This document shows positions 11,467 through 16,504 of a DNA stretch of 64,000 nucleotides, piece by piece (the first letter of the stretch is position 1; each line of letters begins with the position of its first letter). The position numbers were made by a program, and so were the translations under genes. The stretch covers positions 576,001 to 640,000 of the forward strand of contig CAWGAA010000003.1 of the NCBI GenBank assembly GCA_963820525.1. The letters run 5' to 3'. Under the pieces are notes generated by a model. The model saw only the letters and a program-made list of their open reading frames with translations. It did no database searches and was not told the DNA's origin. Source of the DNA: an uncultured Spirochaetota bacterium (GTDB lineage: Bacteria > Spirochaetota > Spirochaetia > SZUA-6 > Fen-1364).

Positions 11467-12678
11467 GTGGACCTGGTCCTCAAGATCTTCCTGTCGCTGA
11501 TTTGCGGATACCTCCTGGGCTCTCTCTCCCCCGCGTACATCCTGGGAAGGCTCGTCAAGGGAATCGACATCCGCACCGTGAACTTCAGGAACGCGGGAAC
11601 CCGCAACGTGAAGGCCACCCTCGGGTTCTGGCCCGCCGCGATCACGGCTGTGATCGACACCACCAAGGGAGTCGCGGCCCTCCTCGTTTCCCAAATGCTC
11701 TTCGGACTTCCTCCCGCACTGGCCGCCATTCCCGTGGCCGCCGCCGTGGCAGGGCACATCCTTCCCTTCTACCTCGGGTTCCGGGGCGGAAAGGGGACGG
11801 CAACGGCGATCGGCGTTTTCATCTTTCTCACCTCGCTCCAGATGGCGGAGGGAAGCTTCAGCCCCATCACATTCGCGGCGCTCCTCCTGGTGGCACTCGT
11901 CTTCCAGGTGGCCGCGAGAAACGGCGACGTGACGGGAATGGTGACGTTCCTCATGATGACGGTGATCACGCCGATCGAGATGGCGGCGAACGGCTATCCG
12001 CCGTGGGGGCCGCGAGGGGACGCGGCCCTCGACACGGCGATCTCGCTTTTCATATTCGCCTCCATTACCCGGACCGCCGTGATCAGAAAGACCTTCCGCC
12101 TCGAGCGGAAGGTGGAGATCAAGCCCTGGAGGTTGATCGCGCGGCCCTTCGCCCTCCTGTTCATCCCCATAGACCTTCTCTGGGGACGGCGGGTTGTTCT
12201 GCTCGTGATCGGGGTCGTGTCGCTCGTCTTCATTCTGGCCGACATCGTCAGGTTCCTGAGCAAGCGCAGCATTGCCGTCTTCTTCAAAGCGGCCGAGGCC
12301 AGGAGATTCTCCTCGATGACGTACTTCCTGGTTTCCGTGTTCGTCTCGTTCCTCGCGTTCCCCGACGAGATCCCCTACCTCACATTGAGCTTCACCACCA
12401 TTGGAGATCTCTTGGGAAAGCTCATTGGGCTGCGGTTCGGCAGGACCGCTCTCTATAAGGAAAAAACCCTCGAGGGATCCCTGGGCTTCTTCGGCGGCAG
12501 CGTCATGACTGCCTATATTCTCTCGCGCCTGCTGCCGATCCCGCTTTTGTTCGTATTCCTGGGGGCCGCGTTTGCCGCGTTGGTGGAGCTGTACTTCGAT
12601 CTGCTCGACGACAACTTCTCCGTCTCTCTTCTGTCCGGCGGACTGCTCTACGCCCTGCGGTTCTTCCGAAACCTCTAG
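11467..12678 (+). CDS. plsY: glycerol-3-phosphate acyltransferase PlsY fused to a dolichol/phytol kinase-like domain
   Basis: GYLLGS...GIDIRTVNFRNAGTRNV, DTTKG, GHILPFYLGFRGGKGTATAIG; C-terminal IGDLLGKLIG...KTLEGSLG...DDNF. Confidence 0.85.
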   Translation: MDLVLKIFLSLICGYLLGSLSPAYILGRLVKGIDIRTVNFRNAGTRNVKATLGFWPAAITAVIDTTKGVAALLVSQMLFGLPPALAAIPVAAAVAGHILPFYLGFRGGKGTATAIGVFIFLTSLQMAEGSFSPITFAALLLVALVFQVAARNGDVTGMVTFLMMTVITPIEMAANGYPPWGPRGDAALDTAISLFIFASITRTAVIRKTFRLERKVEIKPWRLIARPFALLFIPIDLLWGRRVVLLVIGVVSLVFILADIVRFLSKRSIAVFFKAAEARRFSSMTYFLVSVFVSFLAFPDEIPYLTLSFTTIGDLLGKLIGLRFGRTALYKEKTLEGSLGFFGGSVMTAYILSRLLPIPLLFVFLGAAFAALVELYFDLLDDNFSVSLLSGGLLYALRFFRNL

Positions 12679-12761
12679 CGGCGAAAGGCGCGTTTTCAAT
12701 CGGCGCGCGGTCCACCTCTGACCTTAACGCCTGTTCAGATACCGCAGATTCGCGTTTTTTC

Positions 12762-12790
12762 TTGCATTGTGGGGTATCGTGGTTTATACT
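12762..12790 (+). promoter_or_regulatory. sigma70-type promoter
   Basis: TTGCAT(12762-67), 17 nt spacer, TATACT(12785-90). Confidence 0.75.
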
Positions 12791-12796
12791 GTGGCC

Positions 12797-12913
12797 GATG
12801 AATTTAATTCATCGCTAAAGGGGAACGTGAGAAGCAGGGTCCTCCCAATGGAGGAAGACGCGCTCTCTAAGAGAGCCCACTCTGGAAAAGCCTCTCATTT
12901 CCCCTTTCTTTTT
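12797..12913 (+). ncRNA. candidate structured small RNA, family not recognised
   Basis: Follows the promoter. Long closing stem AAAGGGGAA/TTCCCCTTT, a three-way junction with two hairpins, and a terminal T-tract; the next gene is convergent. Confidence 0.6.
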
Positions 12914-12958
12914 GCCCATGAGCTGAAGCGTCGATAAACGCGCGGTGTCGAGCAGCGC

Positions 12959-13777
12959 TCACGCCCTCCTCCCGGCAACCTCAGCAAGTTGTTCCCAATA
13001 CCGGCGCGGCATCAGCCTCGCCTGCAGCCGATGATTCCTCCGCTCCTGTATCGCGATGCTGTCGAAATATTCGCGCCACATTGCCGCAACGAGCGGCTCT
13101 CGGTCCTGCGAAAGGGCCTCGTGAAGCTCGGGCGGCATGTCCCGTAGGTCGACGATACCCCAGCGGCGGAATTTTCTTTTTCCGGCCACGGCGGGAGCGG
13201 GCCCCGCTTCCCGTTTCCGCCAGAACCCGATGCGGCGGCGGACGTCGTGGATCAGGAATGACTGGTCGGGAAAACGATCGGCGAAATGGGGGCCGATGAA
13301 CCCCACGATGTCCGCGTCGGGTTTCACGGGAGCGTAGTACAGAATGTCCGTCACTCTTCGAAAGCGCACGAAGCCCAGGAACTTGTGAATTTCATTGGTC
13401 ACGCGGTCGCGGATTAATCGGAGCATCCGCACGTCGGGGAGGGAGACGTTGTCGATCACGGGCGCGCCGGCGGCCAGCGTGAGATCGATGTAGCGGAGGA
13501 GGAGCTGCGGAGCCCGCGGGTCGTTGGACGCGTGAGATACGATCAGGGTTTCGATCTCTTCGGCGCCGGCAGCGGCGGCGAAGCGGGCGGCGAGCGCCCG
13601 GGCCCGGCGAGGGTCGGTTGCCACCGAGACATTCGCGGAGAAAAGATCGTCAACTCGATGTTCGACGCAAGAGACCGAGACATCCTCCAGCCGGGCGCCG
13701 GCGGAGACGGCGCGAAAGGCCTCCGAGGCGGCGCAGAGAAACCCGTCAAAGCAACCGTCGTAGAGGTGGCGGATCAT
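12959..13777 (-). CDS. TIGR03915 family putative DNA repair protein (DUF4130)
   Basis: YDGCFDGFLCA, EIHKFLGFVRF, HFADRF, IHDVRR, WREYFDSIAIQERRN...MPRRYW. Confidence 0.92.
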   Translation of the reverse strand: MIRHLYDGCFDGFLCAASEAFRAVSAGARLEDVSVSCVEHRVDDLFSANVSVATDPRRARALAARFAAAAGAEEIETLIVSHASNDPRAPQLLLRYIDLTLAAGAPVIDNVSLPDVRMLRLIRDRVTNEIHKFLGFVRFRRVTDILYYAPVKPDADIVGFIGPHFADRFPDQSFLIHDVRRRIGFWRKREAGPAPAVAGKRKFRRWGIVDLRDMPPELHEALSQDREPLVAAMWREYFDSIAIQERRNHRLQARLMPRRYWEQLAEVAGRRA

Positions 13778-15174
13778 GGAAGCATCCCAAGCGCAAGAGC
13801 TTTCTCATCCTCGAACAGGGAAAGCTGGCCGAAAGCCGATCGGCTTCGGGGGTCCGCCTGACGGAGGCGCATCCGCATGAGAGACCTGTCGAGGTCCTTT
13901 CCCTCCAGGGATTTTCCTCCGCAGAGCATGAAGTAGCGGGATCTCTTCATGAGGACGCCGATCCCGCGAAGCGTGTCGAAGGACAGCGGCCCGAAGCGCC
14001 TGGCCTGGACGATCTTCTGGGCCGATTTCTGGCCCACGCCGGGGATGCGAAGCAATGCTTCATAGTCAGCCCGGGTCACCTCCACGGGAAACGCCTCCGG
14101 GTGGCGCAGCGCCCATGCGCATTTCGGATCCAGGTCCAGATCGAGAAACGGGTTGGCGGCGCTCAGGAGCTCTTCCGCGCGAAAGCCGTAGAAGCGGAGG
14201 AGCCAGTCCGCCTGGTAGAGCCTGTGCTCCCGTCCCAGAGGGGGGGCCGCCAGGATGGGCAGGCGCGGGTCCGCGCTCAAGGGAACAAAGGCCGAATAGT
14301 ACACCCTTTTCAATCGGTAGCGCTCGTAGAGCAGCTCCGAGAGCCCGAGGATTTTCAGGTCGCTTTCGGGGCTTGCGCCCACGATGAGCTGTGTGCTCTG
14401 CCCCGCCGGGGCGAATGCGGCGGTGCAGAGAGTTGGCCGGCGAGGCCAGGGCACCGGGAGCCGGGCACGAGGAGCGCGGGCCGCCGGATCCGCGGCAGCG
14501 ATGGTTTTGAGCCCGCATCCCCGACTGGCGGGTATCGAGGTGAGACGGCCCAACGGAGATTCGCTTCTGTTGAAGTCGATATCCGTCTTGACGCTCGACA
14601 TGGAGGAAAGGATGAGGCGGCCGTCCTTCTCCGGGGCGAGCCGCGCAAGGCTCGCCCGGGAGGGAAGCTCGATATTCACGGATACGCGGTCCGCCCAGAA
14701 TCCCGCCTCGCGTACCAGCCATGGCGATGCGCCGGGGATGATCTTGAGGTGGATATACCCGTTGAACCCCGACTCCAGCCTGAGGGTGCGGGCGACGCGC
14801 ACGAGCCGCTCCATGGTATGGTCCGCGCCTCCGAGCACGGCGGAGCTGAGAAAGAGCCCTTCGATGAAGTTGCGCCGATAGAAGCTCTCCGTGAGCGATA
14901 CCAGCTCCGAAACGGTGAAGGAGGCCCGCGGAACGTTTCTCGACCTCCTGTTGGCGCAGTACGCGCAATCGTTCTCGCACGCATTGGTGAAGAGCACCTT
15001 GAGCAGGGAGATGCAGCGGCCGTCATCGGCAAAGCTGTGGCAGATCCCTGGAGCCACGGCATTGCCGAACCGGGACCCCGGGAGGCTTCCCGGCCGTTCC
15101 GCTCCGCTTGTGGCGCAGGAGACATCATACCTCGCGGAACCTGCCAGGATTTTCAACTTTTCAAGAATATCCAC
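13774..15174 (-). CDS. TIGR03916 putative DNA modification/repair radical SAM protein
   Basis: KLKILAGSARYDVSCA, GICHSFADDGRCISLLK, CENDCAYC, REHRLYQADWLLRFYGF, HhH LLRIPGVG. Start placed at GTG 15174. Confidence 0.93.
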   Translation of the reverse strand: MDILEKLKILAGSARYDVSCATSGAERPGSLPGSRFGNAVAPGICHSFADDGRCISLLKVLFTNACENDCAYCANRRSRNVPRASFTVSELVSLTESFYRRNFIEGLFLSSAVLGGADHTMERLVRVARTLRLESGFNGYIHLKIIPGASPWLVREAGFWADRVSVNIELPSRASLARLAPEKDGRLILSSMSSVKTDIDFNRSESPLGRLTSIPASRGCGLKTIAAADPAARAPRARLPVPWPRRPTLCTAAFAPAGQSTQLIVGASPESDLKILGLSELLYERYRLKRVYYSAFVPLSADPRLPILAAPPLGREHRLYQADWLLRFYGFRAEELLSAANPFLDLDLDPKCAWALRHPEAFPVEVTRADYEALLRIPGVGQKSAQKIVQARRFGPLSFDTLRGIGVLMKRSRYFMLCGGKSLEGKDLDRSLMRMRLRQADPRSRSAFGQLSLFEDEKALALGMLP

Positions 15175-15181
15175 GCCTCTT

Positions 15182-15210
15182 TTTATACTATACAAATGTT
15201 ATGCTGTCAA
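15182..15210 (-). promoter_or_regulatory. sigma70 promoter of the TIGR03916 operon
   Basis: TTGACA, 17 nt, TATAAA on the minus strand, ending 7 nt before the GTG. Confidence 0.7.
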
Positions 15211-15280
15211 TTGTTTCGTATAGGGAACCGCATTTGAGGTGCCCGCGAGCATGGTGTAGGCTCGTCGAGGACGAACACCG

Positions 15281-16504
15281 ATGGGAGCCAGGGAGATCGA
15301 GGCCAAGAGCGTGCTCCGCAGATTCAAGAAGATCGACTCATGGTTCGTGGCCTCAGCCGGAATGAACCTCTACCGGGGATGCGGGCATGATTGCGCGTAC
15401 TGCGACGGCAGGGCGGAGAAGTACCGGGTGGAAGGCGAGTTTGCCCGGGAGGTCTCGGCAAAGGTGAACGCCCTGGAGGTTCTGGCAGGCGAGCTGGGTC
15501 GAAAGTCCGAGGAAGCACCTTCGACCCCGGAGCTCTGGCCGGAGATTCCACTCCCTGGCGGCCCGGCGGCGCGCGACTCTGCAGGAGGCGCCCGGCGGGG
15601 CTTACCCCGGCGGCGCGGCAATCCCCCCTCCGGCTTCATCCTTGTCGGGGGCGGAGTCGGCGACAGCTACCAGCCTCTGGAGGAGGAGTATCGACTCAGC
15701 AGGGGAGCTCTCGAGCTCCTGTATGAGCGGAACCTGCCCGTTCACGTTCTCACGAAGTCGACCCTCGTGCTGCGGGACGTCGACGTCCTGGCCCGGATCA
15801 ACCGAGGGGCCCGCGCCGTGGTCAGCTTCAGCATCTCTTCAGTTGACGACGAAGCAAGCGCGGTTTTCGAGCCCGGGGTACCTCCTCCGTCGGAGCGCCT
15901 GAAAGCCCTCTCCGTCCTCAAGAGCGCGGGGCTCGTCTGCGGGATATACCTTCTTCCCGTGATCCCATTCGTTTCGGACAGCGGGGCGGCGATCGAAAGC
16001 TCCGTCCGCGCCGCAAAGGAGGCTGGGGCGGACTTCGTCGCCTTCGGCGGCATGACATTGAAGGAAGGAAGACAGAAGGAGCACTTCATGCGCGTCATCT
16101 CCCGGGCGCGGCCCGAGGCGGCCGAAGAATGCCGCCGGCTGTATGCCAACCATGACCCCTGGGGGAACGCGGCAGGAGACTACTATGAACGGATTGGATC
16201 GCTTTTCGCTTCCGCCGCTCGAAAGCATGGAACTCCTCCCCGCATGCCCCTCCCCGTCTTCAGAAACCTTCTCCAGGGAAAAGACCTGGCGATAGTTTTG
16301 CTCGAGCACATCCACGAGATGCTGCGGCTCGAGGGAAAGAGGTCCCGCTTCGGCTGGGCGGCATATCAGGTATCGAAGGCGAAGGGGCCTCTTGCCGGAA
16401 CCCGAGGCGTCGACAGCGCAGCGGCGCGGGCGATAAGGGAGATCCTCGAAACGGGGACATCCACTCTCTACGAGGAGCTCCTTGCGGGCATATCCCGGCC
16501 TTGA
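15281..16504 (+). CDS. SplB/Rv2578c-like radical SAM protein
   Basis: NLYRGCGHDCAYC, DSYQPLEEEYRLSRGALE, LTKSTLVLRDVDVL, FEPGVPPPSERL. Confidence 0.88.
   Translation: MGAREIEAKSVLRRFKKIDSWFVASAGMNLYRGCGHDCAYCDGRAEKYRVEGEFAREVSAKVNALEVLAGELGRKSEEAPSTPELWPEIPLPGGPAARDSAGGARRGLPRRRGNPPSGFILVGGGVGDSYQPLEEEYRLSRGALELLYERNLPVHVLTKSTLVLRDVDVLARINRGARAVVSFSISSVDDEASAVFEPGVPPPSERLKALSVLKSAGLVCGIYLLPVIPFVSDSGAAIESSVRAAKEAGADFVAFGGMTLKEGRQKEHFMRVISRARPEAAEECRRLYANHDPWGNAAGDYYERIGSLFASAARKHGTPPRMPLPVFRNLLQGKDLAIVLLEHIHEMLRLEGKRSRFGWAAYQVSKAKGPLAGTRGVDSAAARAIREILETGTSTLYEELLAGISRP

Follow-up and report, generated by a model that had tools for sequence, protein, structure and literature searches.

A conserved gene for a three-armed small RNA, with a promoter of its own, in a single family of uncultivated spirochaetes

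A 64,000-nt stretch of an uncultured Spirochaetota genome (assembly GCA_963820525.1, contig CAWGAA010000003.1, positions 576,001 to 640,000; called the window below and numbered from its first letter) contains, on its plus strand between positions 12762 and 12913, a real gene for a small RNA that folds into three arms, preceded by a promoter of its own. From its sequence it appears to be a structured bacterial small RNA gene outside every family tested, and to be restricted to one family of uncultivated spirochaetes. It is probable, if some way from certain, that this is a free-standing, family-specific gene for a stable structured RNA of ~117 nt that acts in trans as a scaffold or decoy and that in some lineages is a leader as well. 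The genome of the window is denoted G000 and other genomes of the family G001 etc.; L numbers denote loci. The parts of the gene are listed here (SD, Shine-Dalgarno).

12755..12760, plus strand: T-rich, UP-element-like tract shortly before the -35 hexamer, taken from the 60-nt upstream consensus
12762..12767, plus strand: -35 hexamer TTGCAT (TTGCAT in 59/71 homologues, TTGNNN in 71/71)
12785..12790, plus strand: -10 hexamer TATACT (TATACT in 44/71 homologues, TATAAT in 27/71)
12797..12913, plus strand: small RNA, ~117 nt, with predicted ends (fold z -4.09; 118.7 bits with covariance model R1; G.U excess)
12797..12813, plus strand: P0, 7-bp 5'-terminal hairpin GAUGAAU-UUA-AUUCAUC, from the alignment
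12817..12825, plus strand: P1 5' arm AAAGGGGAA, pairing with TTCCCCTTT at 12899-12907
12827..12835, plus strand: P2 5' arm GTGAGAAGC, pairing with GCCTCTCAT at 12890-12898
12836..12840, plus strand: junction strand AGGGU, possibly pairing with 12879-12883
12841..12854, plus strand: P3 hairpin CCUCC-CAAU-GGAGG, in which an anti-SD-like arm pairs with an SD-like arm
12862..12876, plus strand: P4 hairpin GCUCUC-UAA-GAGAGC (94.9% of cells paired, variable loop)
12877..12889, plus strand: junction strand J4/2, CC-ACUCU-GGAAAA, where the RNA varies most (mean column identity 0.66)
12890..12907, plus strand: 3' arms of P2 and then P1, from the RNAalifold consensus and pair statistics
12908..12913, plus strand: CUUUUU tract, read from the sequence as a terminator-like end together with P1/P2

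The pattern TTGNNN-17-TANNNT was present in 71/71 distinct copies of the element and ended 5 nt ahead of column 1 of their alignment in 70/71. The spacer was 17 nt long in all 71 and took 67 distinct sequences, and the TTTT before the -35 hexamer showed at least 80% identity in the upstream consensus of these homologues, whichever gene lay upstream. Sequence outside the promoter and the RNA could not be aligned between homologues. The pattern is a classic case of a sigma-70-type promoter seen by phylogenetic footprinting, and the promoter TTGCAT-17-TATACT, proposed in a first-pass annotation of the window, is judged to be real because TTGNNN-17-TANNNT is kept at a fixed distance in 71/71 homologues. 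From this conserved footprint, therefore, the start of the RNA was put at ~12797. The predicted 5' end lies 7 nt past the -10 hexamer and the predicted 3' end within the T tract; 4-10 T were found in all 71 copies in the 20 nt that begin 12 nt before the aligned 3' end.

Folding of a 119-nt stretch gave a minimum free energy (MFE) of -46.2 kcal/mol, compared with -31.2 +/- 3.7 for shuffled sequences (n=200), a z of -4.09, with 0/200 shuffles reaching the same value. The pairing model of the first-pass annotation came to -44.7 kcal/mol, 1.5 above the MFE, with every pair canonical or G.U, and the promoter, stems, hairpins and T tract that it listed all lie where it placed them. Its list was incomplete, as the 7-bp 5' hairpin GATGAAT-TTA-ATTCATC (12797-12813, P0) had been overlooked. 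The six-pair stem GAUGAA/UUCAUC of P0 was unchanged in 70/71 copies, with a variable loop; L090, the sole copy with another P0 stem, has the self-complementary CAGUGA...UCACUG at this position. In P2 there is one A.C mismatch (A12833 and C12892 unpaired) and one G.U pair. P3 was identical at 10/10 stem positions in 71/71 copies, its loop being YRAY, and its pair probability in the G000 sequence was 0.87-0.92; the GGAGG and CCTCC motifs, which had been assigned to a loop region, are instead the two arms of this one invariant hairpin. P4 was nearly invariant, and the divergent copies L144, L099 and L090, as read from the alignment, build the hairpin from other sequence.

The three-way junction that had been proposed stands in its closing stem and hairpins; the helix thought to close the junction itself is doubtful. 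That helix, AGGGU/ACUCU, had a pair probability of just 0.06-0.13 in the G000 sequence and was 75.7% paired across homologues, which a competitor matches: the ACCY strand after P4 has two alternative partners, the AGG before P3, at columns 41-44/86-89, or the AGG before P4, at columns 64-67/85-88, both pairings being ~75% paired across homologues and subgroups differing in which of them suits. The AGGGU/ACUCU helix appears to be no better supported than the rival extension of the second hairpin (P4). A41, G42 and G43 of the AGGGU strand were invariant across the 71 sequences. A pseudoknot between the P3 loop YRAY and AUYG at the P1/P2 joint was rejected, as no consistent covariation was seen by eye. 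A small peptide from the ATG at 12798 was also discarded: the frame has 6 codons, lacks a conserved stop (it runs on in G018, G014 and G003) and shows no periodicity at its variable positions.

Homologues with covariation do exist. The alignment used throughout (A3, made with MAFFT) held 71 distinct sequences with a median pairwise identity of 83%; exact duplicates and the end-truncated L081, L103, L123 and L151 were excluded, and L090 was entered with hand-set bounds. The tested structure was written from the RNAalifold consensus, which had 36 pairs. In this structure 93.9% of the cells of A3 pair, compared with 42-52% after the 3' partners were slid by 1-3 columns. Changes on both sides were found in 14/39 pairs, compared with 6.2 +/- 1.1 in a shuffle control that ignores the relatedness of the sequences, and 0/500 shuffles reached 14. 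The closing stem formed by P1 and P2 (17 pairs) had 97.9% of its cells paired and seven pairs altered on both sides, with compensatory changes in P2 at column pairs 33/104, 35/102 and 37/100. Mean column identity was 0.95-1.00 in the stems and 0.66-0.70 in the loops and the long junction strand. On the plus strand the core helices contained 37 G.U cells versus 15 A.C cells, and this G.U excess, like the promoter and the U tract, places the RNA on the plus strand.

The element is single-copy in G000. BLAST gave strong matches (E <=2.5e-12, 71-83% identity) in 22/24 other genomes of the family and chance-level matches only in 16 genomes from other families of the order. R1, a covariance model built from 23 sequences (effective sequence number 1.13), found exactly one copy in G000 and in each of 22/24 other family genomes; the two without a match are incomplete (70% and 77%). 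It found none in 67 genomes from the seven other families of the order and none in 150 genomes sampled across the phylum, where the strict filters and the narrowness of the model could have let distant relatives escape detection. An exact 20-base pattern (GGGGA-N9-GCAGG-NN-CCTCC-N4-GGAGG) was also scanned over GTDB species genomes and metagenome contigs. The species genomes gave 25 loci, of which 22 are labelled as spirochaete metagenome-assembled genomes (peat, fen, soil, lake sediment). R1 scoring covered 6/25 of these loci, including all three non-spirochaete ones (Acidobacteria, Opitutaceae, Desulfobacterales), which scored at most 14 bits and were set aside as chance matches. Among the metagenome contigs there were 76 pattern loci, 68 of them true homologues by R1.

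The genes around the RNA in the window are the following.

11467..12678, plus strand: 403-aa fusion of a PlsY-like acyltransferase domain (PF02660, E 1.7e-31) with an unassigned C-terminal half
12959..13777, minus strand: TIGR03915 putative DNA repair protein (DUF4130), convergent with the RNA (183 bits, above cut-off; PF13566)
13774..15195, minus strand: TIGR03916 putative DNA modification/repair radical SAM protein (564 bits, above cut-off)
15281..16504, plus strand: Rv2578c/PA0069-type radical SAM gene, 2.4 kb from the RNA, beyond the minus-strand operon

The RNA does lie tail-to-tail with a TIGR03915/TIGR03916 operon, as had been noted, both proteins scoring above their cut-offs. This arrangement is one of several in the family. 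Upstream stands either a divergent NUDIX gene or the PlsY fusion; downstream stands TIGR03915 (convergent), a convergent ~170-aa gene, a radical SAM gene, UvdE (G003) or a URO-D-like gene (G001). In the largest genus the divergent NUDIX gene is upstream in 19/19 genomes, and the convergent ~170-aa gene is followed by GNAT and then Ddl, with an M19 dipeptidase gene intercalated in 3 of the 19. Since the RNA and its promoter persist next to differing neighbours, the RNA is independent of any one neighbour; an own promoter and conservation independent of neighbours, the general marks of an independent small RNA gene, were thus both found.

Some of these neighbours deserve a remark of their own. 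In the PlsY-fusion open reading frame, PF02660 spans residues 14-187 only and the NCBIfam PlsY models score below their cut-offs; neither Pfam nor NCBIfam matches the C-terminal half, which is nevertheless conserved among relatives, the G001 orthologue showing 58% identity over residues 20-403. The convergent ~170-aa gene (L012 966-1475, L015 957-1463 and relatives) ends ~30 nt from the 3' end of the RNA in most genomes of the largest genus, has no Pfam or NCBIfam match and is well conserved only over its last ~47 residues. The TIGR03916 operon and the radical SAM gene of the window are separated by an 86-bp divergent promoter region (15196-15280) with ACTATACAAA and, ~20 nt on, TTTCGTATAG, an imperfect inverted repeat. 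It may resemble the Leptospira SOS box (TTTGCTATACAAA), in which case it would be a candidate LexA site.

For the free-standing trans-acting RNA that we favour, the following course is proposed. Transcription would start from a near-consensus sigma-70-type promoter made up of the T tract, TTGCAT, the 17-nt spacer and TATACT. P0 would shield the 5' end of the RNA, and the 17-bp closing stem (P1 and P2) would enclose the junction that carries P3 and P4 and, with the short U tract, would end most transcripts, probably incompletely. The folded RNA would then act in trans as a structural scaffold or decoy for a protein or the ribosome, not through a single-stranded seed. In roughly one lineage in four, G000 not being among them, polymerase would also read through the weak terminator into the radical SAM gene of the Rv2578c type.

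Recognition of the folded RNA is favoured over seed pairing because the stems are more conserved than the loops and junctions and because the sequence of the P3 helix is frozen. Hfq (PF17209) was not found in G000, which supports a scaffold over a seed. The RNA is kept in 23/25 family genomes and 17 of those 23 gave no orthologue of the radical SAM gene, which argues for a function of its own, and we infer action in trans because the RNA is retained where this gene is absent. Of the unannotated trans-acting non-coding RNA (ncRNA) first proposed, the structured plus-strand ncRNA with its own promoter and no Rfam match was borne out; the word 'trans' depends on this retention.

Several points weigh against this reading. 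Simple scans of this single sequence called neither a promoter, as TTGCAT is only a 3/6 match to TTGACA, nor a terminator, as the stem is branched. Expression and the 5' and 3' ends are all predictions. The minus strand folds no worse than the plus strand (z -4.31), and since both fold equally well the strand had to be settled by the other evidence given above. Covariation is modest because the family is shallow, with its median identity of 83% and the R1 effective sequence number of 1.13, and P3 and most of P0 and P4, which never vary, are therefore uninformative on pairing. Lastly, in some lineages the RNA appears to form part of an mRNA leader, which keeps a cis-regulatory origin open.

The leader arrangement had been overlooked in the first-pass annotation, which held that the RNA cannot be cis-acting. 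This is correct for G000, where the next plus-strand gene is 2.4 kb off and the RNA is not in the 5' untranslated region of any gene that it might control, but it fails elsewhere: a same-strand radical SAM gene directly follows the RNA in 5/22 family genomes (G004, G007, G010, G005 and G023; loci L010, L014, L019, L030 and L017, respectively) and in 14/68 metagenome copies, three of the 14 being short N-terminal fragments. Its start codon lies 8-40 nt past the U tract in G004, G007, G010 and several metagenome copies, and 150-180 nt past it in G005 and G023. No SD was visible ahead of the radical SAM genes that start behind the RNA. A gap of 8-40 nt leaves no room for a promoter, so that the gene must be transcribed by read-through from the RNA promoter, and the RNA would therefore also be a leader in those lineages.

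An alternative is that the RNA is, or descends from, a cis-acting leader. It would attenuate the Rv2578c-type radical SAM gene, either in the manner of a riboswitch or under the control of a protein, with the three-way junction deciding on termination at P1/P2 and the U tract, and the TIGR03915/6 operon would have orphaned it in G000. We consider this unlikely, though it is the main alternative. Orthologues of the radical SAM gene (at least 53% identity) were found in only 6/25 family genomes, and every one of the six adjoins the RNA, five directly downstream and that of G000, whose product is 56-67% identical to that of the gene following the RNA in G004, at 2.4 kb. G006, G021 and three metagenome copies still have N-terminal fragments of the gene after the RNA; such remnants suggest an ancestral unit of RNA and gene followed by repeated loss of the gene. 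The two invariant AGG strands that compete for one ACCY strand, each ~75% paired, are as in a switch, and A41, G42, G43 and G65 in the junction do not vary. Yet an orphan leader should decay, and the RNA is nearly unchanged in the 17/23 RNA-bearing genomes where no orthologue was found; most metagenome copies precede a convergent gene; a canonical terminator or 150-180 nt of tandem repeats separates RNA and gene in G023 and G005; and no candidate ligand is known. For 16 orthologues from four other families of the order, the 300 nt upstream are unrelated sequence, with neither promoter nor hairpins on reading, and the RNA was rejected on this ground as a general leader of the radical SAM family.

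Other features of these loci can be recorded here. The interval between RNA and gene in L030 (G005), L017 (G023) and L110 holds 3-4 tandem copies of a ~24-nt unit (GGCCACTGCTGGTGGCATTCGTCC-like), and in G023 and L110 a canonical GC-hairpin plus T7 terminator directly follows the RNA. The radical SAM copy of G005 has one in-frame TGA. L014, L109, L132, L019 and L104, which belong to two subgroups, carry a junction-strand AUG (columns 93-95) that shares its frame with the radical SAM gene behind the RNA; the G007 type has no canonical in-frame AUG at the usual N-terminus. If P4 forms, the invariant GGAGG comes to lie ~7-9 nt from this junction-strand AUG, which is absent in G000, G004 and others. 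The product of 15281-16504 scored 153 bits with NCBIfam NF038135, below cut-off; the NCBIfam matches of the genes in the five other genomes were below their cut-offs too. A sequence search of the PDB with the radical SAM neighbour gave no match; it may be 'SplB-like / DNA repair photolyase, COG1533'.

What looks unusual about the element is the combination of an invariant SD/anti-SD hairpin, two competing AGG strands and a recurrent SD-less radical SAM gene among DNA-repair-type neighbours. These features could be combined in a dual class of RNA, free-standing and leader at once, in which the SD:anti-SD hairpin and the two AGG strands facing one ACCY would form a switch that reads a signal and sets how much transcription continues into a radical SAM gene lacking its own ribosome-binding site, the released RNA acting in trans on the ribosome or another partner. 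We put this forward as a speculation with a small chance of being right. The signal could be linked to DNA damage, to judge from the neighbours TIGR03915/6, UvdE, the Rv2578c-type radical SAM gene and NUDIX.

Slightly more doubtful still is regulation of translation by base pairing, with CCUCC, or ACCY/CCCC near the 3' end, pairing to the SD of an mRNA, or with GGAGG titrating the anti-SD of 16S rRNA. In its favour, all 71 copies have the same CCUCC and GGAGG, though a plain helix could covary; one subgroup has a second, unpaired ACCUCCCC in the junction strand; and the organism uses canonical SD sequences, for example AGGAGG before acpP. Both motifs are, however, locked in a G+C-rich 5-bp hairpin (P3, with the pair probability given above), and the long junction strand has an identity of 0.66, the opposite of what conservation of a seed would give. 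No target is to hand, no target search having been made. An Hfq-dependent base-pairing small RNA in particular was rejected, as no Hfq was found and the unpaired regions are the least conserved.

An RNA that titrates CsrA, of the CsrB/RsmZ kind, is very improbable. G000 has csrA (87 bits) and the RNA has 3-4 GGA triplets (GGGGAA, GGAGGA; CAGGGA/CAGGAA in most relatives). CsrB/RsmZ sponges carry many GGA motifs in hairpin loops or single strands, whereas the triplets here are mostly within stems, the loops reading YRAY, a variable 3-mer and a variable 5-mer; the junction GGA is missing in G000 (CAGGGU) and in one subgroup (CAGGGG), and there are far fewer sites than in the Rsm RNAs.

That there is no RNA gene at all, merely a stretch that separates convergent genes as a terminator or insulator, or else a palindrome or operator in the DNA, is scarcely credible: the element does sit between convergent genes in G000, its minus strand folds equally well and the P0 palindrome has operator-like invariant half-sites around a variable 5-nt spacer, but the promoter keeps its spacing in 71/71 copies with any orientation of the upstream gene, G.U exceeds A.C on the plus strand and a terminator would be far simpler than this element. 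A role for the P0 palindrome as a regulon operator was rejected, since its only other exact copy in the genome is the rpmF terminator; with eight one-mismatch sites the scan gave 10 matches, versus 3 for a reversed control. That terminator, between rpmF and acpP (G000:C1:68387-68403; L157 1088-1104), reads GGATGAATTTCATTCATC followed by TTTTTT, and has the same hairpin arms as P0, probably by coincidence.

The free-standing structured RNA that we prefer matters for several reasons. Where conservation extends over a whole structured RNA and is not confined to a short seed, the RNA usually has a particular protein, ligand or machine as its binding partner. The recurrent coupling to the radical SAM gene and the DNA-repair-type setting would offer a handle on a widespread uncharacterised enzyme family, and if P3 mimics the SD:anti-SD helix this would be a new way to address the ribosome. 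Should none of these readings hold, the element would be one more lineage-specific small RNA, deserving an Rfam entry. It may be undescribed: the part of the literature that is open to full-text searching gave no account of this RNA and none of what the Rv2578c/PA0069 family does, which is weak evidence.

Comparison with known RNA families began with Rfam 15, which at gathering level gave no match in the whole 64-kb window; nor was any family matched on ten homologue loci. With E up to 10, positions 12600-13050 gave two chance-level matches only, among them a mammalian long non-coding RNA model, sub-threshold and without base pairs shown, which also matched 2/10 homologue loci and was dismissed as spurious. 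The core motifs of signal recognition particle (SRP) RNA and of the hammerhead had been reported missing, and this was upheld. The SRP RNA (RF00169) of the genome is elsewhere, at G000:C1:2603938-2604036 (65.6 bits, above cut-off), and there was no SRP match here at E 10. That gene (L032 1500-1660, G000:C1, minus strand) lies ~25 nt after an apparent tRNA 3' end (GGTTCGAATCC T-arm), which suggests a tRNA-SRP co-transcript. The RNA of the window is like SRP RNA in its similar size and in its paired 5' and 3' ends, and may share the heptamer GAAGCAG with domain IV of E. coli 4.5S RNA; it is unlike SRP RNA, which is one long hairpin, in being a three-way junction. Hammerheads have the core CUGANGA...GAAA, whereas the junction strands here read AGGRN, NUGAWGG and a variable ACCY; these and other small self-cleaving ribozymes were rejected, as no such family was matched.

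The 6S model (RF00013) matched neither the window nor anywhere else in G000, a failure that says little, since it matched only 5/14 control genomes. The RNA may resemble 6S RNA in being promoter-driven, probably abundant and protein-binding, for a niche that looks open in G000; it differs in its 117 nt and three-way junction, 6S RNA being a ~180-nt hairpin with a central bubble. A Y RNA of the YrlA type was rejected, as PF05731 (Ro60/Rsr, TROVE) had no match in G000 (96.7% complete) and no Y RNA model matched. RsaE and RoxS, C-rich small RNAs that target SD sequences, are likewise small, with their own promoter, a terminator and pyrimidine-rich anti-SD-like motifs, but the CCUCC of this RNA is paired to an internal GGAGG and its unpaired segments are the least conserved.

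Two comparisons come closer to the architecture of the element. In attenuator and riboswitch leaders such as the HMP-PP 'thiS' class, the aptamer stem doubles as the terminator stem; here too the closing helix of the junction fold runs straight into the U tract, and a promoterless gene directly follows, though in some lineages only. Most copies, that of G000 included, have no same-strand gene downstream, unlike riboswitch leaders, and the sister-family orthologues are without the element. Comparative genomics has also yielded a class of lineage-named orphan small RNA motifs with their own promoter and terminator. The RNA stands apart from the catalogued motifs, none of whose families it matched, by its 5' hairpin and by a three-way junction holding an invariant SD/anti-SD hairpin; in being single-copy and intergenic, with a conserved promoter, a multi-stem fold and variable neighbours, it is like the lineage-restricted orphan structured small RNAs that Rfam lists under lineage names.

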